A stretch of DNA of 32,000 bases from an uncultured Actinomycetes bacterium (GCA_963843975.1 CAWJMG010000001.1:840001-872000); one strand, 5' to 3'; shown: positions 19,014 to 31,283, counted from the stretch's first letter. Numbers and translations: made by a program. Notes: generated by a model from the sequence alone, not told the origin.

Positions 19014-20588
19014 TCAGCCGCGGGCGGGTGAAGTGCCCTTGCCGCGGTACATCGCGATGTCGGCGGCGTGCAGCGCGGTGCGGGCGTCGAGCATGAGGTC
19101 GTCGACGACGACCTTGCCGATCGTGACGCCCACCGTCACCTGCTTGTCCTGCACCTGCACGTGCTGCACGAGAGACTCGTGCAGGCGGTCGGCGAGGATG
19201 TCGAGCTCGGACTCGTCGTTCATCCAGGTGGCCAGGACGACGAACTCGTCGCCGCCGAGACGCGCCACGGTGTCGTGCAGCCGTACGGCCTGGCGGAACC
19301 GGCCCGCGACCTCGATGAGGACGTCGTCGCCCGCCTCGTGGCCCAGGGTGTCGTTGACCTCCTTGAAGCGCTCGAGGTCGCAGAACAGGATCCCGACGAT
19401 CTCGCCGGACCGCTCGCGGCGGCGCATCGCCTCGCCGATCCGGTCGAGCAGGAGACCGCGGTTGACCAGGCCGGTGAGCGCGTCGTGGTTGGCCTGGTAC
19501 TCCAGCAGCGCCGCCGACCGGTCGTGCTCGAGGACGAGGGTCGCGAGGTCGCAGCACTGGCGGGCAACGGCGTCCACCTCCGGCGCGACGACGTCGCGTG
19601 CGCTGCCGAACAGCTCGAGCTCGCCCGACTCGGCCGGGTTGAGGCCGTCGCCGACCCGCCAGGTGCCGATCTGCTCGTCGCCGGTCGGTCGCAGCTGCGC
19701 GGCCTCGGACAGGACGACGCGGTCGGCGACCATGAGCCGGAACGGCAGGCCACCGGTCGCCTGAGAGGCGAGCTCGGCGACGGACGAGAGCTGCTCGTGC
19801 AGCGGGGCCCCGGTCGCGAGCCGCTCGAGCACACGAGCCTGGCCGCGCTCGAGCAGCGTGCTGCGCTCGAGTGCCGCGCGGGCCACCTCGAGACCTGCCC
19901 GCTCGCTGGCGATCGCGGCGTCGACGCGGCGGAAGTAGCGGCGGACGTCGAGGAAGATCCACCCGGCGAGGCCGAGCGCTGCGAGGAGCGCGGAGACGAG
20001 CAGGATCGAGACGAGCACGTTCGTCGCGATCTGCTGGTCGGTGGAGGTGCGGGTCTCGGTGCGGAAGGTGACGGACTCGAGGTCGCCGAGGTGGCGGGAC
20101 TCGCGCACGAAGTCGCTCAACGCCGGATCGACCGAGGTGTTCCACATCTGCTGCTCGACCGGGGCGAGCGTGCCCACGGGGATCGAGGCGAGCCTGGCGT
20201 CGAGGGCGAACAGCGACTCCCGGTACGACGCGGGCGCGGCGTCACCGGCCGAGACGCCGTCGGCCCCGATGACGCCGAGGCGCTGGCCGAGCAGTGCGCG
20301 CGCGATCTGGACGTCGCGGCGCGGCACCTCGCCGCCGAGGTAGCGCTCGACGACGAACGACAACGCGAGGCTCTCGCGCATCGTGTACACGATGTTGGTA
20401 CGCGTCGACTCCGAGCCCGCCAGCGCGTCGGCGCGCGACTGCACCGCAGCGGCCTGACGGGCGCCGGTGATGGCGAGGCCGGCGAGCAGCCCGATGACGA
20501 TCGCCGCGAGGACCAGCTGGCCGATCCGCGGTCGCAGCCGCTCGTCGGCGGCGGTCGGTGCCGACGTCATGCCGGTCGCGAGGGTCAT
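19014..20588 (-). CDS. membrane sensor diguanylate cyclase (GGDEF)
   Basis: This is the in-frame part of ORF 19014..21089, from ATG 20588 (MTLATGMTSAP..). It has two TM segments flanking a roughly 170-aa extracytoplasmic region. The cytoplasmic linker is followed by HDALTGLVNR, I-site RLHD, an intact GGDEF and a C-terminal YRGK. The start overlaps the stop of the upstream lipoprotein gene (ATGA, 20585-20588). Confidence 0.85.
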   Translation of the reverse strand: MTLATGMTSAPTAADERLRPRIGQLVLAAIVIGLLAGLAITGARQAAAVQSRADALAGSESTRTNIVYTMRESLALSFVVERYLGGEVPRRDVQIARALLGQRLGVIGADGVSAGDAAPASYRESLFALDARLASIPVGTLAPVEQQMWNTSVDPALSDFVRESRHLGDLESVTFRTETRTSTDQQIATNVLVSILLVSALLAALGLAGWIFLDVRRYFRRVDAAIASERAGLEVARAALERSTLLERGQARVLERLATGAPLHEQLSSVAELASQATGGLPFRLMVADRVVLSEAAQLRPTGDEQIGTWRVGDGLNPAESGELELFGSARDVVAPEVDAVARQCCDLATLVLEHDRSAALLEYQANHDALTGLVNRGLLLDRIGEAMRRRERSGEIVGILFCDLERFKEVNDTLGHEAGDDVLIEVAGRFRQAVRLHDTVARLGGDEFVVLATWMNDESELDILADRLHESLVQHVQVQDKQVTVGVTIGKVVVDDLMLDARTALHAADIAMYRGKGTSPARG

Positions 20589-21151
20589 GGGGTGGAGTCG
20601 ACCTCGATCGAGGACAGGCTCCAGTTCCAGGCATCCAGAACCGGCGAGAGCACCGAGCCGTCGGGGTAGATGAGCCGGATCGGGCCGCCCTGGTCGTACG
20701 GGATCGGGGCGCCGTCGCGCTGGGTGGCGATGAGCGCGTTGCTCGCCTCGAGGTCGCCGGCGGCGTCGGCGTACTCGTAGTCGTTGAGCGCGATGGTCGT
20801 GACCTTCGCGGTCGAGGGGATGCCCGCGCGGTCGAAGATCGCACTGACCGGGACACCGGTGAAGGTCTGCTGCGTCTTCACGAACGGCTCGCTGACCGTG
20901 ACCGACGTGGTGCCGAGGCCCTCGAGCTGGCCGAGGGTCAGCTGCACCTTCCCGGCGGTGCCGCCGGTCAGCGTGAGGACGGGCTCGTCCGGGCCGAGCG
21001 GGTCCACGACGGCAGCGCCGTACGGGTTGGTCTCGCTCGCGGACGGGCTCACGGTGGCGCCGCCGGTGCCGGCCGACGACGACGAGCACCCGGCAGCGAG
21101 CACGGCCACGAGTGCCGCGAGCACAGCGAGTACGGGGCGTCGACGATTCAC
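20585..21151 (-). CDS. secreted lipoprotein, possibly with a small molybdopterin-oxidoreductase-like (YedY-type) ligand-binding fold
   Basis: The 188-aa ORF has a signal peptide with a lipobox (MNRRRPVLAVLAALVAVLAAGC|SSSS). The mature domain reads TFTGVPVSAIFDRAGI..ALNDYEYAD..GAPIPYDQGGPIRLIYP. The fold assignment comes from memory of similar annotations and has low certainty. Confidence 0.7.
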   Translation of the reverse strand: MNRRRPVLAVLAALVAVLAAGCSSSSAGTGGATVSPSASETNPYGAAVVDPLGPDEPVLTLTGGTAGKVQLTLGQLEGLGTTSVTVSEPFVKTQQTFTGVPVSAIFDRAGIPSTAKVTTIALNDYEYADAAGDLEASNALIATQRDGAPIPYDQGGPIRLIYPDGSVLSPVLDAWNWSLSSIEVDSTP

Positions 21152-21242
21152 CCTTGTGACGGTACGGAGCGAGTCCGACCGTTTCAGCGCGGGAACCTCA
21201 AGATTCGCTCAGCGCTGCGGGCCAGGGCAGGAAGGGCGACGG

Positions 21243-21997
21243 TCAGAGGTCGTCGGCCGCGCGGATCCTGCCGCGCTCGCTCGCCTGCGGGGACGGATCG
21301 TCGGGCCCGGCCAGCGTCGCCGCCTCCACCTGGGCGGCGATCTCGCGCGGGTCCGTGCCCTCGTCGAACACGGCCACGACCAGGCGGCGGGGGCTTCGCC
21401 TCGCAACGCGGTGTCGAAGGACTGCGACAGCCAGACGAGCGCCGTGTCGAACTCGGCCATGGGGTCCGGGCCGAGGTCGTCCTTCAACCACCGGCGCAGC
21501 ATGTGGTTGTGCACCGCAGCGAACGAGCCCGCCATCGTCTCGGCCTCGAGCTGGCCGTACGGGCGCTCGTCCAGCCGCGAGTGCAGGAAGCGGGCGAACA
21601 GGACGCGGTAGCGCTGCACCCAGGCGATCTCGCGGGCGCGCAGCTCGGGGACGTCCTTGACGAGGCGGTAGCGCCGTAGCGCGATCTCCGGCTCCTCGAC
21701 GTAGTGCGCGAACACCATGCGCACGGCCTCGCACATCGTCGGCACGGCCGGGGTGTCGACGCTCGCGTCGAGGAACGCGGCCACCCGGGTGCTCAGCTCC
21801 TCGTGGTGGAGGAAGACGACCGCGTCCTTGCTGGGGAAGTGCAGGAAGAAGGTGCGCCGGGCGACGCCGGCCGCGGTCGCGATGGCCTCGATCGTGGTGG
21901 CGGCGTACCCCTGCTGCTCGAACAGGTCGAGAGCCGCTGCCTCGATGCGCGTCCGGGCGTCGCCCGGAGCGGGCGCTGCGGGGGCCGTGGAGGACAT
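21243..21997 (-). pseudogene. TetR-family transcriptional regulator with a frame change at a G5/C5 run near its 3' end
   Basis: Starts at ATG 21997 (MSSTAPAAP..). The HTH reads YAATTIEAIATAAGVARRTFFLHFPSKD. The frame of ORF 21209..22108 is convincing up to ..SQSFDTALRGEAP, then turns R/P/W-rich with rare codons. The frame of ORF 21243..21734 takes over with RRLVVAVFDEGTDPREIAAQVEAATLAG...ADDL*, where 46 of 47 codons end in G/C. The switch sits at the G5 run 21389-21393 and corresponds to one missing base. Confidence 0.7.
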
Positions 21998-22092
21998 GCG
22001 AAAGACCCTAGCCGTAACCCTGGCGTCATGGCTACACCCGGTGTACTGTGCGATGCACCCGGTGCAGTCCCCAGACGAGAGAGGCCCTCGCC

Positions 22093-22416
22093 ATGCCCCG
22101 AGTCCCACCGCCGCCGCCCGTCGAGGTCGTCGTCGCCGAGGAGCAGCAGTACCTCTTCGCGACCACCGGCACCGCCCTGCAGGAGCAGTGGTGGGCCTCC
22201 GCCGCGTGCCAGGACGCCGAGCCCGACGTCTTCTTCCCGGTCAGCGCGCAGGACCAGATCTCCCGCCGTGTCGCCCTCTCGTTCTGCGGCGGCTGCGCCG
22301 TCCGCGACGAGTGCCTGCGCGTCGCGCTGCAGGACCGCTCGCTCATCGGCATCTGGGGCGGCACCGACGAGGCCCAGCGCGCCCAGCTCCGCCAGCGCCA
22401 GCTCGTCGCGAGCTGA
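22093..22416 (+). CDS. WhiB-family (Wbl) Fe-S transcription factor
   Basis: ORF 22048..22416. Four Cys are arranged C(QDAEPDVFFP)..-C-GG-C-AVRDE-C, followed by the GIWGG turn. The preferred start is ATG 22093 (107 aa), with ATG 22048 as an alternative. Confidence 0.8.
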   Translation: MPRVPPPPPVEVVVAEEQQYLFATTGTALQEQWWASAACQDAEPDVFFPVSAQDQISRRVALSFCGGCAVRDECLRVALQDRSLIGIWGGTDEAQRAQLRQRQLVAS

Positions 22417-23690: not shown

Positions 23691-26109
23691 TCAGACAGAG
23701 CCGTCACCGAGCGACCAGTCGCGCACCTCGGGCATGTCCTCGAGGTTCTCGACGACGTACGCCTCGTGCTTGTCCAGCTGCGCCTGGCACCACGCCTTGA
23801 GCTCGCTGGCCCCGGGCGGCGTGCGACGCGCGTTGTTGATCGCGTCCATGACGAGGTGGTAGCGCGAGACACGGTTGCGCACGACCATGTCGAACGGCGT
23901 GGTCGTCGTGCCCTCCTCGATGAAGCCGCGCACGCGGAAGCGGTCGGCGTCCGGACGGCCGTGCACGAGCTGGTGGATCGCGCCCGGGTAGCCGTGGAAG
24001 GCGAACACCACGTCGACGTGGTCGGTGAAGAGCTCGTTGAAGAGCGTCTCGTCCATGCCGTGCGGGTGGTCCTTGCGGCGCGGCAGCGTCATCAGGTCGA
24101 CGACGTTGACCACGCGGGTGCGGAAGTGCGGCATGTGCTTCTTCAGGATCTCCGCCGCGGCGATGGTCTCCATCGTCACGACGTCGCCCGCGCACGCGAG
24201 CACGATGTCGGGGTCGGCAGACGCCGTCGTCGGTGCCCGCCCACTCCCACACGCCGGCGCCGCGCGCGCAGTGCTCGACGGCCTCGTCGATCGTCAGCCA
24301 CTGCAGCTGCGGCTGCTTGTCGATGACGATGAGGTTGACGTACGACCGCGAGCGGAAGCAGTGGTCGGCGACCGAGAGCAGGCAGTTCGCGTCCGGCGGC
24401 AGGTAGACCCGGCCGATGTTCCCGCGCGTGGTGATGACGTTCTGCAGGAGGCCGGGGCCCTGGTGGCTGAAGCCGTTGTGGTCGTTCCGCCAGGCTGTCG
24501 AGGTCAGCAGGATGTTGAGGCTCGGCACCGGCTCGCGCCAGCCGAGGTGCTCGGCCTCCTGCAGCCACTTCGCGTGCTGGATGGTCTGCGACGCGCTCAC
24601 CATCGCGAACGCCTCGTACGTCGCGAACAGGCCGTGCCGGCCGGTCAGCGTGTAGCCCTCGAGCCAGCCGTGGCAGTTGTGCTCGGACAGGACCTCCATG
24701 ACGCGGCCGTCGCGCGAGAGCGAGACGTCCTCGGGCAGGACCTTCTCCGCGAACATGCGGTCCGACACCTCGAACACCGCGCCGAGCCGGTTGCTGTTGG
24801 TCTCGTCCGGGCAGAAGAGGCGGAAGCGGTCGCCGTTGTCGCGGTAGATGTCGCGCATGCAGCTCGCCGAGCTTGCGCGTCGACTCCAGCTTGCACCGTC
24901 GCCGGCGTCGGGACGTCGACGGCGTAGTCGCGGAAGTCGGGCATCTCCAGGTCGCGCGTGAGCAGGCCGCCGTTGGCGTGCGGCGACGCGCTCATCCGCA
25001 GGTCGCCGGTGATGTTGGCCCGGCGCACGAGCTCGCTGGGCCCGCCGTTCTCGTCGAACAGCTCCTCGGGCCGGTACGAGCGCAGCCACGTCTCGAGGAT
25101 GTCGAGGTGGTCCTGGTTGCCCTTGACGCCGGACAGCGGCACCTGGTGCGAGCGCCACGTGCCCTCGGTCTTCTGGCCGTCGACCTCCTTCGGGCCGGTC
25201 CAGCCCTTGGGCGAGCGAAGGATGATCAGCGGCCAGTCGGGACGCGTGCCGTCCCAGTCGCCGCCGCGCGCGGATAGCCTGGATCTCGCGGATCCGGACC
25301 CAGGCGCGGGTCAGCGCCGCGGCGAACCGATGGTGCATCCCAGGGATGTCGTCGCCCTCGACCTCGATGACCTCGTAGCCGTGGCCGGAGAGGAGCTCGC
25401 GCACCTCGGCCGGGTCCTTGCGGCCCAGCACGGTCGGGCCGGCGATCTTCGCGCCGTTGAGGTGCAGGATCGGGAGCACGGCCCCGTCGCGGGCAGGGTT
25501 GAGGAACGAGACGCCCTTCCACGAGCCCTCGAGCGGGCCCGTCTCCGCCTCGCCGTCGCCGACGACGGCGAGGGCGATGAGGTCGGGGTTGTCCATGACC
25601 GCGCCGAAGGCGTGCACGAGGACGTAGCCGAGCTCGCCGCCCTCGTGGATCGAGCCGGGGGTCGGCACCGAGACGTGGCTCGGGATCCCACCGGGAGCGG
25701 AGAACTGGCGGCAGAGCCGCAGCAGCCCGTCCTCGTCCTGGGAGACCTCGGGGTAGATCTCGCTGTAGGTGCCCTCGAGGTAGCCGGCAGCGACGAGCGC
25801 CGGACCGCCGTGGCCGGGGCCGGCGAGGTAGATCATCTGCTGGTCCGTCTTGCTGATCAGCCGCGTCGCGTGGGCGTAGATGAACGACAGGCCGGGGCTC
25901 GTGCCCCAGTGGCCGAGCAGACGCGGCTTGATGTCGTCCGAGACGAGCGTGCGCTTGAGCAACGGGTTCGCACCCAGGTAGATCTGGGCGACGGTGAGGT
26001 AGTTGTTGGCCCGCCACCAGGCGTCGAGGGGTGCGAGCTCGTCATCGGTCGGGTTCGCGAGCGCCTCGACGAGCGAGTCGGTGGGGACTGCGGTGGTGCG
26101 TGTGGTCAC
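23691..26109 (-). pseudogene. xfp: xylulose-5-P/fructose-6-P phosphoketolase, reading frame broken by four single-base (+1) shifts
   Basis: GTG 26109 is preceded by GGGAGGAA. Recognisable phosphoketolase sequence is spread over frames. Segment 1 runs 26109 to ~25270 (..GHWGTSPGLSF..GPGHGGPA..EGGELGY..GDGEAETGP..IREIQAIRA). Segment 2 runs ~25265 to ~24893 (GGDWDGTRPDWPLIILRSPKGW..HQVPLSG..MPDFRDYAVDVPTPATVQ). Segment 3 is a 10-codon piece, LESTRKLGEL (24889-24860). Segment 4 runs 24858 to ~24223 (MRDIYRDNGDRFRLFCPDETNSNRL..WRNDHNGFSHQGPG..VWEWAGTDDG). Segment 5 runs ~24221 to 23691 (SADPDIVLACAGDVVTMETIAAAEILKK..FHGYPGAIHQL..). Each junction needs one base removed. Confidence 0.88.
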
Positions 26110-26418: not shown

Positions 26419-26769
26419 ATGCCGCAGTACGCAGCACTGATCTGGAGCACCGACCTCGAGCCGTCCGACCCCGCGTTCGCGGCGATGATGCCGGGCTACA
26501 ACGCCTTCGGGCACGAGGCCGAGGCCGTCATCCGCGGCGGCGCCGCGCTCTACAACAACGCCACCGCCACGACGGTCCGCGTCACCGGCGGCAAGGGCGG
26601 CGACATCGTCACCACCGACGGACCGTACGCCGACACCAAGGAGGCCCTGACCGGCTTCTACCTGGTCGAGGCAGCCGACCTCGACGAGGCCGTCGCCTGG
26701 GCCGCGAAGATCCCCGCCGCGTACGACGGCGGCTGCGTCGAGGTGCGGCCCGTCATCGACTTCGGCTGA
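26419..26769 (+). CDS. YciI-family (DGPF domain) protein
   Basis: The 116-aa ORF contains TTDGPYADTKEALTGFYLVEAADLDEAVAWAAKIP, a typical YciI/DGPF signature. SD GGGGAG lies upstream. Confidence 0.85.
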   Translation: MPQYAALIWSTDLEPSDPAFAAMMPGYNAFGHEAEAVIRGGAALYNNATATTVRVTGGKGGDIVTTDGPYADTKEALTGFYLVEAADLDEAVAWAAKIPAAYDGGCVEVRPVIDFG

Positions 26770-26784
26770 TCCGACGACCGTCCC

Positions 26785-28014
26785 ATGACGTCACCGGTGG
26801 ACGCGGTCGAGAGCGTCGTCCGCGAGGAGTTCCCACGCATCCTCGCGACGCTCGTCCGCGTCACCGGTGACGTCGGCCTGGCCGAGGACTCCGTGCAGGA
26901 GGCCGTGATCCGGGCCCTGACCACCTGGCCGCGCGACGGCGTCCCCGACGAGCCGCGCGCCTGGCTGACCACCGTGGCGCGGCGCTGCGCCGTCGACCGC
27001 ATCCGGCGCGAGGCGCAGCGTGACGGGAAGGAGGCGGAAGCCGTGTGGCTGCTGGACTCCGAGCCCGAGCCGCCGCCGGAGTCGGTCGTACGAGACGACC
27101 TCCTGCGCCTGGTGTTCACCTGCTGCCACCCGACCCTGTCGCCCGAGGCGCAGGTGGCTCTCAGCCTGCGCACGCTGTGCGGCCTGTCGACCGCCGAGGT
27201 CGCGCGCGCCCTGCTCGTCCCCGAGGCGACGGCGGCCAAACGGCTCACGCGCGCCAAGCAGAAGATCGCCGCGGCGCACATCCCCTACCGCGTCCCGTCC
27301 GACGCCGAGCTGCCCGACCGTCTCGCCGGCGTGCTCGCCACGGTCTACCTCGTCTTCAACGAGGGGTACGCGCCGTCGAGCGGGGACGCCGCCGTGCGGC
27401 AGGACCTCGTCGACGAGGCGATCCGCCTCGGCCGTCTTCTCCACGGCCTGATGCCGGACGAGCCCGGCGTGATCGGCCTGCTCGCCCTCATGCTGCTGCT
27501 CGACTGCAGGCGCGCGGCGCGCGTCGCACCCGACGGGTCCGCCGTGAGGCTCGCGGACCAGGTGCGGCACCGGTGGGACCCGGCCGAGGCACGCGAGGGC
27601 GTGACCCTGGTCGCCGAGGGCGTCCGGCGCACGCCCGAGCGCGCCGACCCGTACGTCGTCCAGGCTGCGATCGCGGGCTGCCACGCGCTGGCCCCGTCGT
27701 ACGCCGAGACCGACTGGGACGCCGTGATCGACTGGTACGACGTGCTTCTCGCCGTACGCGACTCCCCCTCGGCTCGGCTCGGCCGGGCCTCGGCGGTGGC
27801 CGAGCGGGACGGGGCCGCGGCAGGTCTCGAGGCAGTCGACGCGATCGGCGGTCTCGAGCACCACGCGTGGTGGCACGGGGCTCGCGCCGAGCTGCTGCAC
27901 CGCCTCGGCCGCGACGACGAGGCGCACACCGAGCGGGCGACCGCCGAGAGCCTCGGCCTCAACTCGGCCGCCCTCGCCTCGCTCGACTCCTCGCTCGCGT
28001 CCCCGCCACGCTGA
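26785..28014 (+). CDS. ECF-type RNA polymerase sigma factor with long C-terminal extension (ECF42-like)
   Basis: The 409-aa ORF has sigma region 2 (ILATLVRVTGDVGLAEDSVQEAVIRAL..PRAWLTTVARRCAVDRIRRE) and region 4 (LRTLCGLSTAEVARALLVPEATAAKRLTRAKQKI). It also has a roughly 230-aa helical C-terminal extension. Adjacency to a DGPF/YciI gene is the known hallmark of ECF group 42. The group assignment is an inference. Confidence 0.85.
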   Translation: MTSPVDAVESVVREEFPRILATLVRVTGDVGLAEDSVQEAVIRALTTWPRDGVPDEPRAWLTTVARRCAVDRIRREAQRDGKEAEAVWLLDSEPEPPPESVVRDDLLRLVFTCCHPTLSPEAQVALSLRTLCGLSTAEVARALLVPEATAAKRLTRAKQKIAAAHIPYRVPSDAELPDRLAGVLATVYLVFNEGYAPSSGDAAVRQDLVDEAIRLGRLLHGLMPDEPGVIGLLALMLLLDCRRAARVAPDGSAVRLADQVRHRWDPAEAREGVTLVAEGVRRTPERADPYVVQAAIAGCHALAPSYAETDWDAVIDWYDVLLAVRDSPSARLGRASAVAERDGAAAGLEAVDAIGGLEHHAWWHGARAELLHRLGRDDEAHTERATAESLGLNSAALASLDSSLASPPR

Positions 28015-28069
28015 CGCCGGTGGTCAGAACGCAGTCTCGGCATCGCGCGCCGACCACGGGCCGTGGGTA

Positions 28070-29047
28070 TCAGCCGATCGACGGCAGGACGAGCAGTCCC
28101 GCAGGCTGTCCGCTGGCGTCGTAGAACAGCCACTGCGGGACCGAGTTGGGGGTGCCCATCTCGGCGACCGAGAGCCGGGCCTCAACGAAGGGGGCGGCAG
28201 GGTCGCCGACGTATGCCTCGCCGCGGTGGTGCCTGAGGTCGTCGAAGGCCTGCGCTGCGCTGGGCACCTCCACCGGAGCGGTGCCCGTCACCCGACCTGT
28301 CTCGACGACCGCGAACGTCAGCCGCCCCTGCGCGTCGAAGCTGACCTGGTCGTACGACGTGATGACGCACTCGACGCAGGCGGTGCCGGTGATCTCGATG
28401 CCATAGCTCGCCGAGCCGTCGCTCGGCTCCTGCGCCGATCGAGGCGAGAGAACGGCACGCGCCGCGAAGCCGGTGCCCTCAAGGTCACCGAGGCCCCACG
28501 TCGTCACGAGCTCCAGCGCAAGCGCCACCTGCGCCTGCTGCGTCACAGCGACCGGCGCGCTGGGACCGCCATGGAAGGCGACATGGCCGTTCCAGCCCTC
28601 GAACGCGGGCACCACCGACAGAACGCCGGAGGGCAGGACCGCGACCGGATCCGCCAGCCGTTGGTCGGGGAGGCCCGACCCAGAGCCGAAGTACGGGGCC
28701 AGAGCTGCAAGCTCCTCGGACGAGGTGACGACGCGCGCGTCGCCGCCGCCCAGGGGTGCGGACAGGGCGGCCAGATCCTGGTCGAGGGACCACACCCGAG
28801 CCGCGACCACGGGGACGGTCGTCGTGGGCGGTACGTCGGACAGCACCACGGCGTCCGCGAGCGCGACGGCGGGGTCGCCGGCGATGCGCCACCACAGGGA
28901 GGCGGCGGGACCGGCGCCGTACACGTAGGCCGCGACAAGAGCCGCGACGACGGCCACGACCGTGAAGGTGCCCACGGTGGCGCGGACGATCTGGTGCCTC
29001 ACGCTGGGGCCGTCGCTCAGGTGCGGTGCTCCCCAGGCCATGCTCAT
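28070..29047 (-). CDS. hypothetical membrane-anchored protein (N-terminal TM, large extracytoplasmic domain)
   Basis: Only the 3' 978 nt of ORF 28070..30232 look coding. ATG 29047 (MSMAWGAPHL..) is preceded by GAGGGGGA. It has a TM (VGTFTVVAVVAALVAAYVYG) and no motif I recognise. The upstream part of the ORF is the antisense of the acidic-repeat gene. Confidence 0.62.
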   Translation of the reverse strand: MSMAWGAPHLSDGPSVRHQIVRATVGTFTVVAVVAALVAAYVYGAGPAASLWWRIAGDPAVALADAVVLSDVPPTTTVPVVAARVWSLDQDLAALSAPLGGGDARVVTSSEELAALAPYFGSGSGLPDQRLADPVAVLPSGVLSVVPAFEGWNGHVAFHGGPSAPVAVTQQAQVALALELVTTWGLGDLEGTGFAARAVLSPRSAQEPSDGSASYGIEITGTACVECVITSYDQVSFDAQGRLTFAVVETGRVTGTAPVEVPSAAQAFDDLRHHRGEAYVGDPAAPFVEARLSVAEMGTPNSVPQWLFYDASGQPAGLLVLPSIG

Positions 29048-29284
29048 GTCGTCCCCCTCGTACGACGGCGCGGGTTCGCCGTCCGTCACCTGGTCATCGG
29101 CCGCGGCCACCTCGCCGCCACGCGTCCGGACGGGTGATCCGACCGCCCATCTCCCGGCGGCCTCCCCCGGACGTCCAAGAACCGTCCCGAAGGCTGACCA
29201 GAGGTGTCGCAGGCCCTGGACCTGCGCAGATGCACCACCCACTCTGGGCCCGCACCACCCCACCGACCCGAGAACGAGGACCCC

Positions 29285-30079
29285 ATGACCACGACCCGAC
29301 GCACCACCCTCCGCGCGGCCACCGCCCTCGGTGCCGTCCTCGCCGTCCTCGTCGCCGGCTCGGCCACGACCGCCGCCCAGGCCCAGGGCGGCCACGGCTC
29401 GCGCATCGTCGTCGCGCAGAACGGTGCCGACGACGACCTCGACGGCGACGGCATCCCCGAGGCGGAGGACACCGACGACGACGGCGACGGCATCGACGAC
29501 TCGATCGACACCGACAAGGACGACGACGGCATCACCGACTCGGTCGACCTCGACGACGACGGCGACGGCGTGAACGACGCGTCGGAGTCCGACTACGACG
29601 GCGACGGCCTCGCCGACGACTCGTCGCTGGAGAAGGACATCGACGGCGACGGCCTCAGCGACGACTCCGCCACCGAGCTCGACATCGACGGCGACGGCCT
29701 GAAGGACAGCTCGGCAGCCGAGAAGGACATCGACGGCGACGGGCGTACCGACAGCTCGGCCACCGAGGCCGACATCGACGGCGACGGGCGCACGGACGGC
29801 TCGAAGTTCGAGGTCGACATCGACGGCGACGGGCTGAAGGACACCAGCGCCCTCGAGAAGGACATCGACGGCGACGGCCTCGGCGACTCCTCGTCGCTCG
29901 AGAAGGACATCGACGGCGACGGCACCACGGACTCGCGCGACAAGGACGTGGACGGCGACGGCGTCCTCAACCACTCCGACTCCGACCTGGACGGCGACGG
30001 CGTGGCCAACGCGCACGACACGGACAAGGACGGCGACGGCATCGCGAACTGGAAGGACAGCTCGCCCCGCGGCGTCTGA
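29285..30079 (+). CDS. secreted hyper-acidic DxDGDG-repeat protein (thrombospondin type-3-like Ca-binding repeats), paralog 1
   Basis: This is the in-frame part of ORF 29204..30079, from ATG 29285 after GAGGA. It has a Tat-like signal (MTTTRRTTLRAATALGAVLAVLVAGSATTAAQA|Q). About 13 DxDGDG/DDDGDG units follow, seven of them at a strict 15-aa (45-nt) period (e.g. DIDGDGLKDSSAAEK). It ends ..DKDGDGIANWKDSSPRGV. Confidence 0.8.
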   Translation: MTTTRRTTLRAATALGAVLAVLVAGSATTAAQAQGGHGSRIVVAQNGADDDLDGDGIPEAEDTDDDGDGIDDSIDTDKDDDGITDSVDLDDDGDGVNDASESDYDGDGLADDSSLEKDIDGDGLSDDSATELDIDGDGLKDSSAAEKDIDGDGRTDSSATEADIDGDGRTDGSKFEVDIDGDGLKDTSALEKDIDGDGLGDSSSLEKDIDGDGTTDSRDKDVDGDGVLNHSDSDLDGDGVANAHDTDKDGDGIANWKDSSPRGV

Positions 30080-30099
30080 CCTCCCCCGCACCACCGGCA

Positions 30100-30131
30100 G
30101 GGGCCGGGCAGCCTTCGGGCCGCCCGGCCCT
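30100..30131 (+). terminator. GC-rich hairpin after paralog 1
   Basis: A 9-bp stem, gggccgggc (30101-30109) / gcccggccc (30122-30130), is extended by gcc/ggc around a ttcg loop. It starts 21 nt after the stop. There is no U-tract. Confidence 0.5.
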
Positions 30132-30349
30132 GCTCGTCCTCTGGCCGCAGCGGGGTGGAGACGGAGCGCCATCAGCCGGACGCCCGGGCGATTTCCAAGG
30201 AACGTCCAAGAGACGTCGGACGCGCTCCCCACGGCCGCAGCGAACGGGTGAAGCCGCAGGTCGAACGCTCAGGGACCGCTCAGGAACGGGCGACAACGCA
30301 TCTGTCATCGACATCCCGGGCTTCGGCCCCATCCGATCGTGAGGACCCC

Positions 30350-31153
30350 ATGAGCAGCACCCGACGCACGAGCCTCCGCGCAGCCACCGCGCTGGGCGCC
30401 GTGCTCACCGTGATCCTGGCCGGCGGAGCCGTGACCGGCATCGCCCACGCCTCCGACTCCACCTCGGGCGGCGGCGACGGAACCAGCGTCAGCACCGACA
30501 CCGGCGAGGACCAGGACGGCGACGGCACCCCCGAGGCGGAGGACGCCGACGACGACGGCGACGGCATCGACGACGCCGTCGACTCCGACAAGGACGACGA
30601 CGGCATCGAGGACTCGGTCGACGCCGACGACGACGGCGACGGCGTCAAGGACGCGGTCGAGACCGACATCGACGGCGACGGCATGGACGACGACTCGGCC
30701 GCCGAGACCGACATCGACGGCGACCTGCGCGCCGACGACGCGTCGAACGAGCTCGACATCGACGGCGACGGGCTCAAGGACAACGCCGTCGCGGAGACCG
30801 ACATCGACGGCGACGGGCGGACCGACGCCAGCGCCAACGAGGCCGACATCGACGGCGACGGGCGCACGGACGGCTCGAAGTTCGAGGTCGACATCGACGG
30901 CGACGGCCTGAAGGACACCAGCGCCCTCGAGAAGGACATCGACGGCGACGGCAAGGGCGACAGCTCGGCCACCGAGACCGACATCGACGGCGACGGCACC
31001 TCCGACGCCAAGGACAAGGACGTGGATGGCGACGGCATCGCGAACCACGTCGACTCCGACCTCGACGGCGACGGCGTGGCCAACGCGCACGACCTCGACA
31101 AGGACGGCGACGGCGTCGTGAACTGGAAGGACAGCGCGCCGCGCGGCGTCTGA
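30350..31153 (+). CDS. secreted hyper-acidic DxDGDG-repeat protein, paralog 2
   Basis: This is the in-frame part of ORF 30155..31153, from ATG 30350 after the same GAGGACCCC leader as paralog 1. The signal is MSSTRRTSLRAATALGAVLTVILAGGAVTGIAHA|S. It has the same repeat architecture and the same C-terminus (..DKDGDGVVNWKDSAPRGV). Confidence 0.8.
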   Translation: MSSTRRTSLRAATALGAVLTVILAGGAVTGIAHASDSTSGGGDGTSVSTDTGEDQDGDGTPEAEDADDDGDGIDDAVDSDKDDDGIEDSVDADDDGDGVKDAVETDIDGDGMDDDSAAETDIDGDLRADDASNELDIDGDGLKDNAVAETDIDGDGRTDASANEADIDGDGRTDGSKFEVDIDGDGLKDTSALEKDIDGDGKGDSSATETDIDGDGTSDAKDKDVDGDGIANHVDSDLDGDGVANAHDLDKDGDGVVNWKDSAPRGV

Positions 31154-31170
31154 CCTCCTCGCACCACCGG

Positions 31171-31204
31171 CAGGGCCGGGTGACCTCCGGGTCGCCCGGC
31201 CCTG
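31171..31204 (+). terminator. hairpin after paralog 2
   Basis: A 14-bp stem, cagggccgggtgac (31171-31184) / gtcgcccggccctg (31191-31204), has one G.U pair and a 6-nt loop. The flank tgacctcc.cgcaccaccggcag is shared with the paralog-1 3' flank. Confidence 0.6.
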
Positions 31205-31283
31205 CTGCGTGCCGCCCTCGCGGCACGCGGCAACTTCGTGCGATGCGCTGCGACCTGCCGCGCGTCGGTCCTAGGTTCGCCCC

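Follow-up and report, generated by a model that had tools for sequence, protein, structure and literature searches.

Tandem genes for two putatively secreted, acidic thrombospondin type 3-like repeat proteins in an uncultured actinomycete

The 32,000-nt stretch of DNA from an uncultured Actinomycetes bacterium analysed here (GCA_963843975.1, CAWJMG010000001.1:840001-872000; referred to below as the window) contains two adjacent ORFs. According to the initial annotation, these encode small, secreted, hyper-acidic proteins built almost entirely of DxDGDG repeats, which were thought to be possible substrates of the Tat pathway and to be unusual in standing alone. The locus therefore raises the question of whether the ORFs are genuine genes, by which route their products leave the cell, and what function these products may perform outside it.

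Both ORFs are present as described: gene A (29285..30079, + strand) encodes a putatively secreted, acidic, thrombospondin type 3 (TSP3)-like repeat protein of 264 aa, and gene B (30350..31153, + strand) its paralog of 267 aa. The two tandem genes have intact reading frames, and their products share 73% aa sequence identity. In a short-read contig whose sequence is identical to that of the window (L001), genes had been called independently, and there too the start of A is at 29285. The G+C content at the third codon position is 0.96 for A and 0.92 for B, and the value for the first position exceeds that for the second. This pattern is typical for genes of this genome and thus indicates that the + frame of A and B is coding. 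Long antisense ORFs overlapping both genes were rejected as shadows, since the codon-position G+C content favours the + frame. Mature A (approximately 231 aa, 23.6 kDa) contains 71 Asp residues, no Cys, and has a net charge of about -65; B also lacks Cys and has a net charge of about -70. Neither protein had an exact match in the protein and contig collections searched, whichever of the possible starts was used.

Inspection of the flanking regions (all of the following features lie on the + strand) revealed a Shine-Dalgarno sequence common to both genes, GAGGACCCCATG, whose GAGGA motif, as read from the sequence, is located 4 nt ahead of the ATG in each case (29276..29280 for A and 30341..30345 for B). 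Further upstream, A is preceded by an 18-nt box, GGACGTCCAAGAACCGTC (29169..29186), a candidate promoter or operator remnant, which has a counterpart before B, GAACGTCCAAGAGACGTC (30200..30217). The pattern GRACGTCCAAGARMCGTC has two matches in the window, one preceding each gene. A role as a regulatory element conserved outside the duplication was not supported for the box: it is absent upstream of the orthologs at loci L007 and L074 (described below), and its window-wide significance is marginal, at least two matches being found in 7 of 100 shuffles of the window. Downstream of the stop codon of A there is a GC-rich hairpin (30095..30135), a candidate terminator without a U-tract, which is homologous to the first of two successive strong hairpins located 3′ of the stop codon of B (31169..31228; 31169-31206 and 31207-31228), also a candidate terminator. 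The 73-nt stretch with the hairpin after A (30078-30150) reaches -37.4 kcal/mol, with a z-score of only -1.6, and the 124-nt stretch with the hairpins after B (31152-31275) reaches -82.9 kcal/mol (z = -6.66; none of 200 shuffles was as stable). Scans for sigma-70-type promoters and U-tract terminators found none, and no such match is expected in a genome of 72% G+C. The possibility that A and B are fragments of something larger was rejected: an ortholog of equal size and layout exists, and each gene is equipped with a separate Shine-Dalgarno sequence, a signal peptide, a stop codon and a 3′ hairpin.

Each of the two proteins contains 15 loops, arranged as four 13-residue, eight 15-residue and three 13-residue units. 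In gene A (+ strand), the N-terminal block (29435..29590) is composed of four DxD(G/D)DGxxDxxDx units with a 39-nt period, the central block (29591..29944) of eight D(I/Y)DGDGxxDxSAxEx units with a 45-nt period, and the C-terminal block (29945..30076) of three 13-residue DxDGDGxxNxxDx units with the final cap NWKDSSPRGV. The layout of B is the same (4 + 8 + 3), and one of the eight 15-residue units of its central block (30665..31018, + strand) reads DIDGDL. Tandem Repeats Finder detected the 45-nt period far above chance in both genes (A, 29596-29962, 8.3 copies; B, 30658-30998, 7.6 copies). The earlier count of seven E-x-DIDGDG units per gene is accurate for A, whereas B contains eight, including the DIDGDL unit. 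The flanking 13-residue (39-nt) blocks, four units at the N-terminal side and three at the C-terminal side, are not mentioned in the initial annotation.

The flanking units have the canonical DxDxDGxxDxxD form, with Asp mostly at positions 1, 3, 5, 9 and 12; in the three C-terminal units, Asn takes the place of Asp9, and residues other than Asp sometimes occupy position 12. Among the sixteen 15-residue units of A and B, D1, D3, G4, D5 and D9 are invariant, G6 is present in 15, and position 14 is acidic throughout (Glu in 14 units and Asp in two). It is assumed that Glu14 of this unit stands in for Asp12 of the canonical motif. Between A and B the ligand positions are invariant and the other positions are near-neutral, with dN/dS values of approximately 0.55-1.1 depending on the region. 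A 69-nt stretch of A (29764..29832, + strand) is identical to positions 30838-30906 in B. It is part of a tract of about 90 nt that is 98-100% identical, compared with about 80% in the background, and this tract was probably generated by gene conversion. Both proteins end with the common sequence DKDGDG(I/V)xNWKDSxPRGV, as previously described. The proposal that the NWKDSxPRGV tail is a family signature was not borne out, as it represents an ordinary last TSP3 unit (DxDGDGxxNxxDxxPxG) whose Trp is not conserved among the orthologs. The tail was also rejected as a sorting signal, because similar DSxP(R/Q/S)G caps end repeat blocks in unrelated multidomain proteins.

Comparison with profile libraries agreed with the description of A and B as secreted, hyper-acidic TSP3-like proteins devoid of other domains. 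The TSP_3 model (PF02412; Pfam gathering threshold 25 bits) matched A with 27.0 bits (E = 3.6e-6) and B with 21.9 bits, which is under the threshold; it matched all four family members (A, B and the L007 and L074 orthologs), with a best E value of 8.4e-12. The best matches to Pfam TSP_3 and to COMP are given by the C-terminal 13-residue block of A. Of the profile searches suggested in the initial annotation, the one with TSP_3 was thus successful, whereas the EF-hand, Excalibur and dockerin models, as well as RTX/HemolysinCabind, did not match A or B at E values up to 1. The Excalibur motif, DxDxDGxxCE, includes a Cys residue, so the Cys-free proteins A and B do not fit it. The bacterial model TSP3_bac (PF18884) gave 12.2 bits (E = 0.17) for B, under its 25-bit threshold, and no match for A, and scans with Pfam and NCBIfam found no domain besides TSP_3 in either protein. 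The reported lack of an anchoring domain was also confirmed: there is no Cys (hence no lipobox), no LPXTG motif and no hydrophobic C terminus, the proteins ending with NWKDS(S/A)PRGV. The sole sequence match in the PDB was COMP (3fby), found with A alone at E = 1.3e-3 and with the family profile at E = 6.8e-4. In the AlphaFold2 model of A the repeat core has a pLDDT of about 85 and is predicted to contain neither helices nor strands, as in the calcium "wire" of thrombospondins. Foldseek searches of the PDB with this fold returned only TSP-2, TSP-1 and COMP, and these matches were weak (E = 0.02-0.08, TM 0.17).

Both proteins begin with a predicted signal peptide. That of A (29285..29383, + strand), MTTTRRTTLRAATALGAVLAVLVAGSATTAAQA, ends with a putative signal peptidase I site between AQA and Q, and that of B (30350..30451, + strand), MSSTRRTSLRAATALGAVLTVILAGGAVTGIAHA, with a putative cleavage site between AHA and S. 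The AxA cleavage site is kept in the orthologs.

It was only through scans of genomes and metagenomes with DNA patterns that these orthologs came to light. Word-indexed and exhaustive phmmer searches of protein collections returned predominantly repeat-rich proteins, with no full-length close ortholog among the matches listed; those listed for the exhaustive search were mostly giant proteins of 1-7 thousand aa. The pattern scans identified orthologs in one MAG locus (L007) and in two metagenome contigs (L074 and L075), which show full-length identities of 59-60% and keep the blocks. An ortholog with a 4/7-9/3 architecture occurs in a MAG from Lac Pavin. The central block of the orthologs contains 7 or 9 units, compared with 8 in A and B. 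At the related loci, 73 of 108 complete ORFs consist only of a signal peptide and repeats, so that the statement that small stand-alone all-repeat proteins are unusual does not hold. The related ORFs come mostly from MAGs of Verrucomicrobiota and Actinomycetota whose record names point to freshwater (lakes and rivers), and most of them have no annotation.

Proteins of this kind form an unnamed family in Verrucomicrobiota and Actinomycetota/Acidimicrobiia MAGs, most of which have freshwater-type names (e.g. ORF 602-1363 of L007, L012, L024 and P0083). Like A and B, its members (124-500 aa) combine the (A/S)xxExDIDGDGxxD unit with 13-residue units and have a signal peptide without other domains. 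Their identity to A and B is at most 63%, and a tandem pair is found only in the A/B lineage. Many members from Verrucomicrobiota differ from A and B in carrying an extra C-terminal domain of about 200 aa, and those from Acidimicrobiia in the dominance of 13-residue units and in their Gly/Ser/Thr-rich tails; several copies per genome are present in Acidimicrobiia MAGs. A and B belong to a common, poorly annotated family and so do not represent a new kind of system.

The neighbouring sigma factor gene was used as a query to establish the lineage of the window and to find syntenic loci. By this criterion, the closest named relative belongs to the genus Longivirga, which is placed within Sporichthyaceae in the NCBI taxonomy. 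A and B lie within a lineage-specific segment (29139..31276), at the position of which relatives carry an arginase gene. The flanks of this segment, with an ECF sigma factor gene on the left and a SulP permease gene on the right, are conserved at 82-88% nucleotide sequence identity. As judged from this synteny, the A/B pair is accessory and occupies a variable chromosomal spot. It appears to have arisen by local duplication of a unit of approximately 1.05 kb, comprising the upstream box, Shine-Dalgarno sequence, gene and hairpin. A functional link of A and B to the ECF sigma factor/YCII pair, to a 346-aa membrane protein or to the SulP permease was considered and rejected, because all of these are kept in relatives that have no A or B.

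We propose, with moderate confidence, that A and B are Sec-exported Ca2+ binders composed wholly of TSP3 loops, which are soluble or loosely associated with the envelope and store or buffer Ca2+ at the cell surface. In the bacterial cytoplasm, free Ca2+ is kept at a very low (sub-micromolar) level, and repeats of the TSP3 type depend on Ca2+ for folding and remain disordered in its absence. The pre-protein would therefore take the Sec route while still unfolded and highly charged, and signal peptidase I would then cut off the leader. Outside the cell, each loop would bind about one Ca2+ ion, i.e. about 15 per protein, and the Ca2+-bound chain would condense, stapled by the metal, into a compact structure devoid of helices and strands. 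The resulting high-capacity binder of divalent cations, either free or loosely held on the envelope, could act as a Ca2+ reservoir or buffer. The role of a soluble cation binder is suggested by the lack of any anchor, enzymatic or partner-binding domain in A and B; the reservoir or buffer function is deduced solely from this absence of other domains. The proposed binding of calcium is an analogy drawn from other small TSP3 proteins of bacteria, whose fragments bind metal (PMC12152738).

With regard to the export route, it was previously suggested that A and B may be Tat substrates, which would be loaded with metal and folded in the cytoplasm and exported as folded cargo. In favour of this, both N termini carry a twin arginine (A, TRRTTLR; B, TRRTSLR), and T-R-R is kept without exception in the two proteins and in the orthologs at L007 and L074. 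The h-region, in which Ala, Gly and Thr are abundant, is only moderately hydrophobic, and the TAT_signal model (PF10518) aligns, very weakly, with A. This alignment, however, scores 7.1 bits (cutoff 22.7), and B gave no match; of the NCBIfam models, no general Tat-signal model matched either protein, the only hit being formate_TAT (TIGR02811) for A, with 7.9 bits against a cutoff of 48.45. These profile tests are insensitive, as they also missed a control leader with SRRSFLG. Other features point away from Tat: the F position of the S/T-R-R-x-F-L-K motif is occupied by a polar residue (Thr in A, Ser in B), the L007 and L074 orthologs, which include the closest one, have Thr instead of the Leu (RRSTTR), the c-region of A has no basic Sec-avoidance residue, and most relatives of the repeat class have no twin arginine and signals that are read as Sec-type. 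Moreover, a folded, loaded state before export is unlikely, given the Ca2+ dependence of TSP3 order and the low Ca2+ level of the cytoplasm. Tat export is thus quite improbable. That A and B are non-functional, being either chance-open, low-complexity GAC/GGC repeat DNA or an artefact of assembly with collapsed or expanded repeats, is extremely improbable. The short-read contig L001 ends within the repeats of A, frameshifts elsewhere in the window (three of them in a phosphoketolase gene) indicate indels in the assembly or the genome, and neither A nor B has an exact match in the protein collection. Against this, both genes have uninterrupted frames complete with Shine-Dalgarno sequence, signal peptide and stop codon, their codon-position G+C content is typical for genes of this genome, the motif positions are perfectly kept where the remaining positions vary, and full-length orthologs built in the same way were found in MAGs and metagenomes that are independent of the window.

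The main alternative to a cation-binding role is that of calcium-dependent adhesins or constituents of the matrix, in which the variable surface of the Ca2+-folded rod would bind other cells, surfaces or exopolymers. Bacterial proteins with TSP3 repeats are usually suggested to have such a role, which is also implied by the name given to MtsC in NCBIfam, and those of Cutibacterium acnes have been annotated as putative adhesins (PMC3124536). An adhesive role would agree with the freedom of the non-ligand positions to differ between A and B, with the variation of the central block (7, 8 or 9 units among orthologs), which is often seen in surface proteins, with the multiple copies per genome in Acidimicrobiia MAGs, and with a weak NCBIfam similarity to MtsC, a named cell-cell cohesion protein. 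The match to MtsC, however, reaches 26.8 bits against a cutoff of 350, and the MYXO-CTERM segment is missing. Furthermore, A and B have no cell-wall anchor, lipobox, transmembrane segment or recognised binding domain, and no partner gene is located nearby, the neighbours being conserved in relatives without A and B. We consider an adhesive role unlikely. It is very improbable that the proteins scavenge a scarcer metal, such as lanthanides or another hard cation, in analogy to lanmodulin, with Ca2+ being only the default occupant of the sites. Asp at positions 1, 3, 5 and 9 supplies four carboxylates per loop, and fragments of comparable small TSP3 proteins favour lanthanides over Ca2+ (PMC12152738), but such a preference of Ca2+ sites reflects general chemistry and is no proof of biological use. 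In addition, the window contains no gene for a XoxF-type enzyme, TonB-type uptake or other lanthanide-related function.

A broader version of the cation-binder reading, which we regard as decidedly doubtful, would make the whole unnamed family a freshwater-adapted device for extracellular cation capture: a cheap, anchorless, polyanionic "sponge" by which scarce Ca2+ or trace lanthanides would be concentrated at the cell surface in soft, dilute waters, spread by horizontal transfer between phyla and expanded by duplication and by gain and loss of units. If this were true, the 15-residue unit would constitute a new, un-modelled TSP3 subtype with its own coordination geometry. The more immediate result is a refinement of annotation, in that two "hypothetical" genes can now be labelled as encoding secreted, TSP3-like, putative calcium-binding repeat proteins; the A/B locus alone makes no long-standing question testable. 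At the level of the family, this class of repeats proves to be common in the form of small stand-alone proteins, in bacteria that are mostly of freshwater origin by their record names. The three-block layout is kept with a variable number of central units, and the 15-residue unit is barely captured by current domain libraries, so most relatives are unannotated. For the separation of rare earths, comparable proteins are being explored as metal binders of high capacity (PMC12152738), and in view of this interest the family offers a large natural set of sequences to mine.

Among known systems, the calcium "wire" of thrombospondin-1, thrombospondin-2 and COMP (PDB 1ux6, 1yo8 and 3fby) shares with A and B the tandem DxDxDGxxDxxD motifs at a 13-residue period, and the chain of A, predicted to be free of helices and strands, would resemble it in this respect too. 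In contrast to these proteins, A and B have no Cys and consequently no disulfide-stapled C-type motifs, and nothing follows the repeats, so there is no lectin-like C-terminal domain for them to wrap around. Moreover, over half of each protein is made up of the 15-residue DIDGDGxxDxSAxEx variant, with Glu14 in place of Asp12, which is poorly covered by the Pfam TSP_3 model.

Small bacterial counterparts are found in Epidermidibacterium keratini, a member of Sporichthyaceae like Longivirga, and in Ulvibacter litoralis. The proteins in question, A0A7L4YJY0 (295 aa) and A0A1G7K3T7 (400 aa), respectively, consist essentially of TSP3 repeats, and for their fragments the binding of Ca2+ and lanthanides has been measured, with about one metal site per 13-15 residues (PMC12152738). 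Binding of metal compacts the disordered acidic chain, and the affinity for lanthanides, which are preferred over Ca2+, ranges from sub-micromolar to tens of micromolar (PMC12152738). As far as their description allows a comparison, these proteins resemble A and B in their small size, Asp-rich TSP3-type loops with about four Asp residues each, and very low pI. They differ in that they were selected as predicted cytoplasmic proteins, whereas A and B have signal peptides, and in that a beta-sheet arrangement was modelled for the E. keratini protein (PMC12152738), whereas no strands are predicted for A. Scans with EKDIDGDG-type patterns did not pick up the E. keratini genome, which therefore probably encodes a different repeat subtype, and none of the matches of 293-295 aa that were inspected resembled its protein.

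The C-terminal 13-residue units of A and B also show local similarity to MtsC (NCBIfam NF047638), a TSP3-repeat protein with MYXO-CTERM that is named for cell-cell cohesion in Myxococcus. With scores of 26.8 and 23.7 bits against the cutoff of 350, and with PRGV at the C terminus instead of MYXO-CTERM, A and B are not members of this family; a literature search combining MtsC with thrombospondin returned nothing. A parallel in working principle is provided by the RTX repeats (beta-roll, GGxGxDxUx), which are acidic, remain unfolded at the low intracellular Ca2+ level and fold on contact with extracellular Ca2+. The principle proposed here for A and B would be similar, although it is realised with another motif and another period, and with an N-terminal signal peptide in place of a type I secretion signal and its associated genes.

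Genes A and B (29285-30079 and 30350-31153, respectively, both on the + strand) encode proteins of 264 aa (counted from an ATG codon) and 267 aa, which share 73% sequence identity and belong to an already known class, that of the thrombospondin type 3 (TSP3) calcium-binding repeats. The codon-position composition of the two genes (GC3 of 0.96 in A and 0.92 in B, with GC1 exceeding GC2) identifies the + frame as coding in this window of approx. 72% GC; on the same basis, the long antisense ORFs overlapping A and B were rejected as shadows. The ATG start of gene A was identical in an independent gene call made on the short-read contig L001, which is 100% identical to positions 26635-29497. These data, together with the ORF listing, confirm that both genes are real, and the description of their sequences in the initial annotation proved accurate. 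Contig L001 stops inside the N-terminal repeat block of gene A, which shows that repeat genes of this type break short-read assemblies. Such breakage probably accounts for the lack of A and B in protein collections, and the repeat family may be under-counted for this reason.

In both proteins, a signal peptide of 33-34 residues (TRRTTLR...AQA-Q in A and TRRTSLR...AHA-S in B) and a short linker are followed by (i) four 13-residue units DxD(G/D)DGxxDxxDx, (ii) eight 15-residue units D(I/Y)DGDGxxDxSAxEx and (iii) three 13-residue units DxDGDGxxNxxDx, the last of which closes in NWKDS(S/A)PRGV, giving 15 conserved acidic loops per protein. At the nucleotide level, Tandem Repeats Finder detected a 45-nt period (8.3 copies in A, 7.6 in B) flanked on either side by 39-nt-period arrays, the latter unmentioned in the initial annotation. 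Residues D1, D3, G4, D5 and D9 are invariant in all 16 of the 15-residue units of A and B, I2 and G6 are each present in 15 units, and E14 in 14. The 13-residue units fit the canonical TSP3 motif DxDxDGxxDxxD, and the 15-residue unit is, judging from its sequence, a TSP3 variant with the last acidic ligand placed two residues further along. The mature proteins (approx. 23.5 kDa) contain 71-73 Asp residues and no Cys, and their net charge lies between -65 and -70. No anchor or domain other than the repeats was found in A and B, nor was any DxDGDG-type repeat motif found elsewhere in the window.

The only Pfam model matched was TSP_3 (PF02412; 27.0 bits for A vs a cutoff of 25, and 21.9 bits for B), and the only NCBIfam match was a local, far sub-threshold one to the TSP3-repeat protein MtsC (NF047638). 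A sequence search of the PDB returned COMP (3fby) alone, with E values of 1.3e-3 for A and 6.8e-4 for the family profile. The AF2 model of A, based on a 31-sequence alignment, has a mean pLDDT of 68.9 (approx. 85 over residues 110-250) and contains no predicted helix or strand; Foldseek matched it weakly (E 0.02-0.08, TM 0.17) to thrombospondin-2, thrombospondin-1 and COMP alone among PDB structures.

The duplicated unit (approx. 1.03-1.07 kb) comprises an upstream box, a ribosome-binding context, the gene and a post-stop hairpin. The 18-nt box shared by A and B, G(G/A)ACGTCCAAGA(A/G)(C/A)CGTC, is located approx. 100-135 nt 5′ of each start codon (29169-29186 for A and 30200-30217 for B, + strand), and that of A forms a GGACG...CGTCC inverted repeat. 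It was not found 5′ of the orthologs in L007 (a Lac Pavin MAG) and L074 (a metagenome contig), and may represent a promoter, an operator or a mere remnant of the duplication. The ribosome-binding context GAGGACCCCATG is common to both genes. The GC-rich hairpin after the stop codon of A (30095-30135, + strand) is weak and homologous to that of B (31169-31228, + strand), which is strong and doubled (z = -6.7 for the 124-nt stretch containing it). Since box, ribosome-binding context and hairpin recur in each copy, A and B are probably separate transcription units. The overall dN/dS between the genes is 0.73, a value inflated by extreme codon bias, and only non-ligand positions have changed. Over approx. 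90 nt, the two genes share 98-100% identity, with 69 nt matching exactly (29764-29832 = 30838-30906), which points to gene conversion.

The closest full-length relatives are encoded by the metagenome contigs L074 and L075 (60% and 59% identity, respectively). The top genome match, L007, is an Actinomycetota MAG of 63% GC, encoding a 253-aa protein with 59% identity over residues 1-263; the DNA-pattern scans yielded no confirmed match above 63% identity. In an alignment of A, B and the L007 and L074 proteins, all of which match TSP_3, the four first and three last 13-residue units are present throughout, and the central 15-residue units number 8, 8, 7 and 9, respectively. The four proteins share the terminus N-x-x-D-x-x-P-x-G, but not the Trp of NWKD.

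The DNA-pattern scan of genomes (one genome per species; taxa and habitat assigned by record title) confirmed 67 loci, approx. 47 of them from Verrucomicrobiota and 16 from Actinomycetota or Acidimicrobiia. The majority of the titles point to lakes, rivers or streams by tags such as Lac Pavin, ELA, Mendota-type bins, WHONDRS rivers and glacier-fed streams, and the family appears to be concentrated in freshwater members of Verrucomicrobiota and Actinomycetota, the habitat being inferred from record names. In Acidimicrobiia MAGs, several loci per genome encode all-repeat relatives of 240-370 aa. Single lake-named Acidimicrobiia/Actinomycetota MAGs contain two or three separate loci each (L008/L012/L013 of ELA314; L024/L054; L026/L042; L031/L041). 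The proteins of these MAGs are a within-genome multi-copy family; they share the leader MLPST(S/A)RRYxxxSLRxRL... and end in a tail rich in Gly, Ser and Thr. Small stand-alone all-repeat proteins, initially regarded as unusual, turned out to be common: they constitute 73 of the 108 complete ORFs at 125 fetched loci, as defined by an N-terminus resembling a signal peptide and no more than 45 residues past the last unit (the start choice was heuristic, the C-terminal criterion start-independent).

The protein searches, less informative than the DNA-pattern scans, returned mainly repeat-rich proteins, the majority of which lack Pfam annotation; some are giants of 1-7 kaa. Others are secreted proteins of 400-460 aa (among them P0001, P0002, P0004, P0007, P0016 and P0018, of 410-460 aa) that combine the 15-residue DIDGDG unit of A and B with a C-terminal domain of approx. 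200 aa. This domain is conserved (...VSxEVRRxLQIP...WRYLSPDNIQV...LQRTxMQVSRxWYG), is without Pfam annotation, and may constitute an unnamed domain family. The caps DSSPRGA, DSTPRGI, DSTPQGL and DSDPSGV terminate repeat blocks in unrelated multidomain proteins.

The ECF sigma factor of the window shares a 90%-identity cluster with that of Longivirga aurantiaca, placed by taxonomy look-up in the Sporichthyaceae (Actinomycetota). Syntenic loci of L. aurantiaca (L002) and of a closer MAG lineage (L003-L006) were compared with the window. The flanks on either side of A and B share 82-88% nucleotide identity with these relatives; between them, A and B are absent from L002-L006, and an arginase gene is present instead. 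The segment 29139-31276 is thus, as judged by synteny, lineage-specific and located in a variable spot, between the genes for the ECF sigma factor and a SulP permease downstream of A and B. This spot contains (i) arginase, cytosine/purine-type transporter and TetR genes in L. aurantiaca (L002 9230-12580), (ii) a 331-aa hypothetical gene and arginase in the closer lineage (L003 9230-11710), and (iii) a 346-aa hypothetical gene, A and B, without arginase, in the window. The 346-aa membrane protein (28070-29110, - strand), transcribed divergently from A, carries a transmembrane segment near its N-terminus and matches no Pfam model; conservation is limited to the N-terminal part (28814-29138), with 73% nucleotide identity to the gene for the relatives' 331-aa protein, and L. 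aurantiaca has no counterpart.

The upstream order, all on the - strand where coordinates are given, is GGDEF protein (19014-21089), small molybdopterin-oxidoreductase-domain gene (20585-21151), TetR regulator (21209-22108), WhiB, acetate kinase, phosphoketolase (XFP; 23691-26109), YCII and the ECF sigma factor, which carries DUF6596. The true starts of the otherwise ordinary GGDEF and TetR genes are probably internal to their longest ORFs (691 aa vs 525 aa and 299 aa vs 230 aa, respectively, in the gene calls of relatives). Three frameshifts interrupt XFP: residues 1 to approx. 279 and approx. 406-632 are in frame -3, and residues approx. 279-406 (25274-24891) and 628-804 (24224-23694) in frame -1, with 95% and 98% identity, respectively, to the intact 804-aa protein of L. 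aurantiaca. This points either to a pseudogene or to indel errors of assembly; the XFP and acetate kinase genes are also split in the related MAG L003. A functional tie of A and B to their neighbors was rejected, because the flanks are conserved in relatives lacking both genes.

TSP3-type repeats require Ca2+ for folding, and free Ca2+ in the bacterial cytoplasm is very low; Sec export of A and B as unfolded chains is therefore favored. The accepted logic for RTX proteins is that of unfolded export and folding outside the cell. The chain would pass unfolded through Sec and fold extracellularly, with approx. one Ca2+ bound per loop; metal binding would turn a disordered chain into a compact one, and the folded proteins would act outside the cell. 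The observed basis comprises intact genes, AxA cleavage sites in the signal peptides and an architecture conserved in orthologs, and it makes an artefact barely credible. We consider this overall picture fairly probable, with A and B acting, as our best guess, as soluble or loosely envelope-associated, high-capacity binders of divalent cations.

We judge the main competing role, that of a Ca-dependent adhesin or matrix protein, distinctly less probable. The initial annotation proposed Tat-like signals and, as one possibility, Tat export of folded cargo. The twin arginine is indeed kept in A, B, L007 and L074, but the consensus F position is occupied by Thr (A) or Ser (B), the consensus Leu is lost in both orthologs (RRSTTR), and a twin arginine is lacking from the signals of most proteins in the wider family. 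The Tat signal models did not match (7.1 bits vs 22.7 for A, nothing for B), although they are insensitive and also missed a control SRRSFLG leader. Tat export is thus unsupported, and the folded-cargo reading is unlikely. Trace-metal scavenging, with which the lanthanide binding described below would agree, seems quite improbable beside the preferred role in high-capacity cation binding.

Within this known class, the mildly new features are (i) the under-modelled 15-residue unit, (ii) the three-block layout, conserved except for the varying number of central units, (iii) the apparent freshwater Verrucomicrobiota/Actinomycetota concentration of the family and (iv) the tandem duplication specific to this lineage, located in a variable spot. 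Epidermidibacterium keratini is presumably another member of the Sporichthyaceae. A 295-aa protein of this species is among the small bacterial all-TSP3 proteins whose fragments bind Ca2+ and lanthanides, with approx. one site per 13-15 residues, and become compact on metal binding (PMC12152738). A and B resemble these proteins by description, and by this analogy the study supports the metal chemistry proposed for them.
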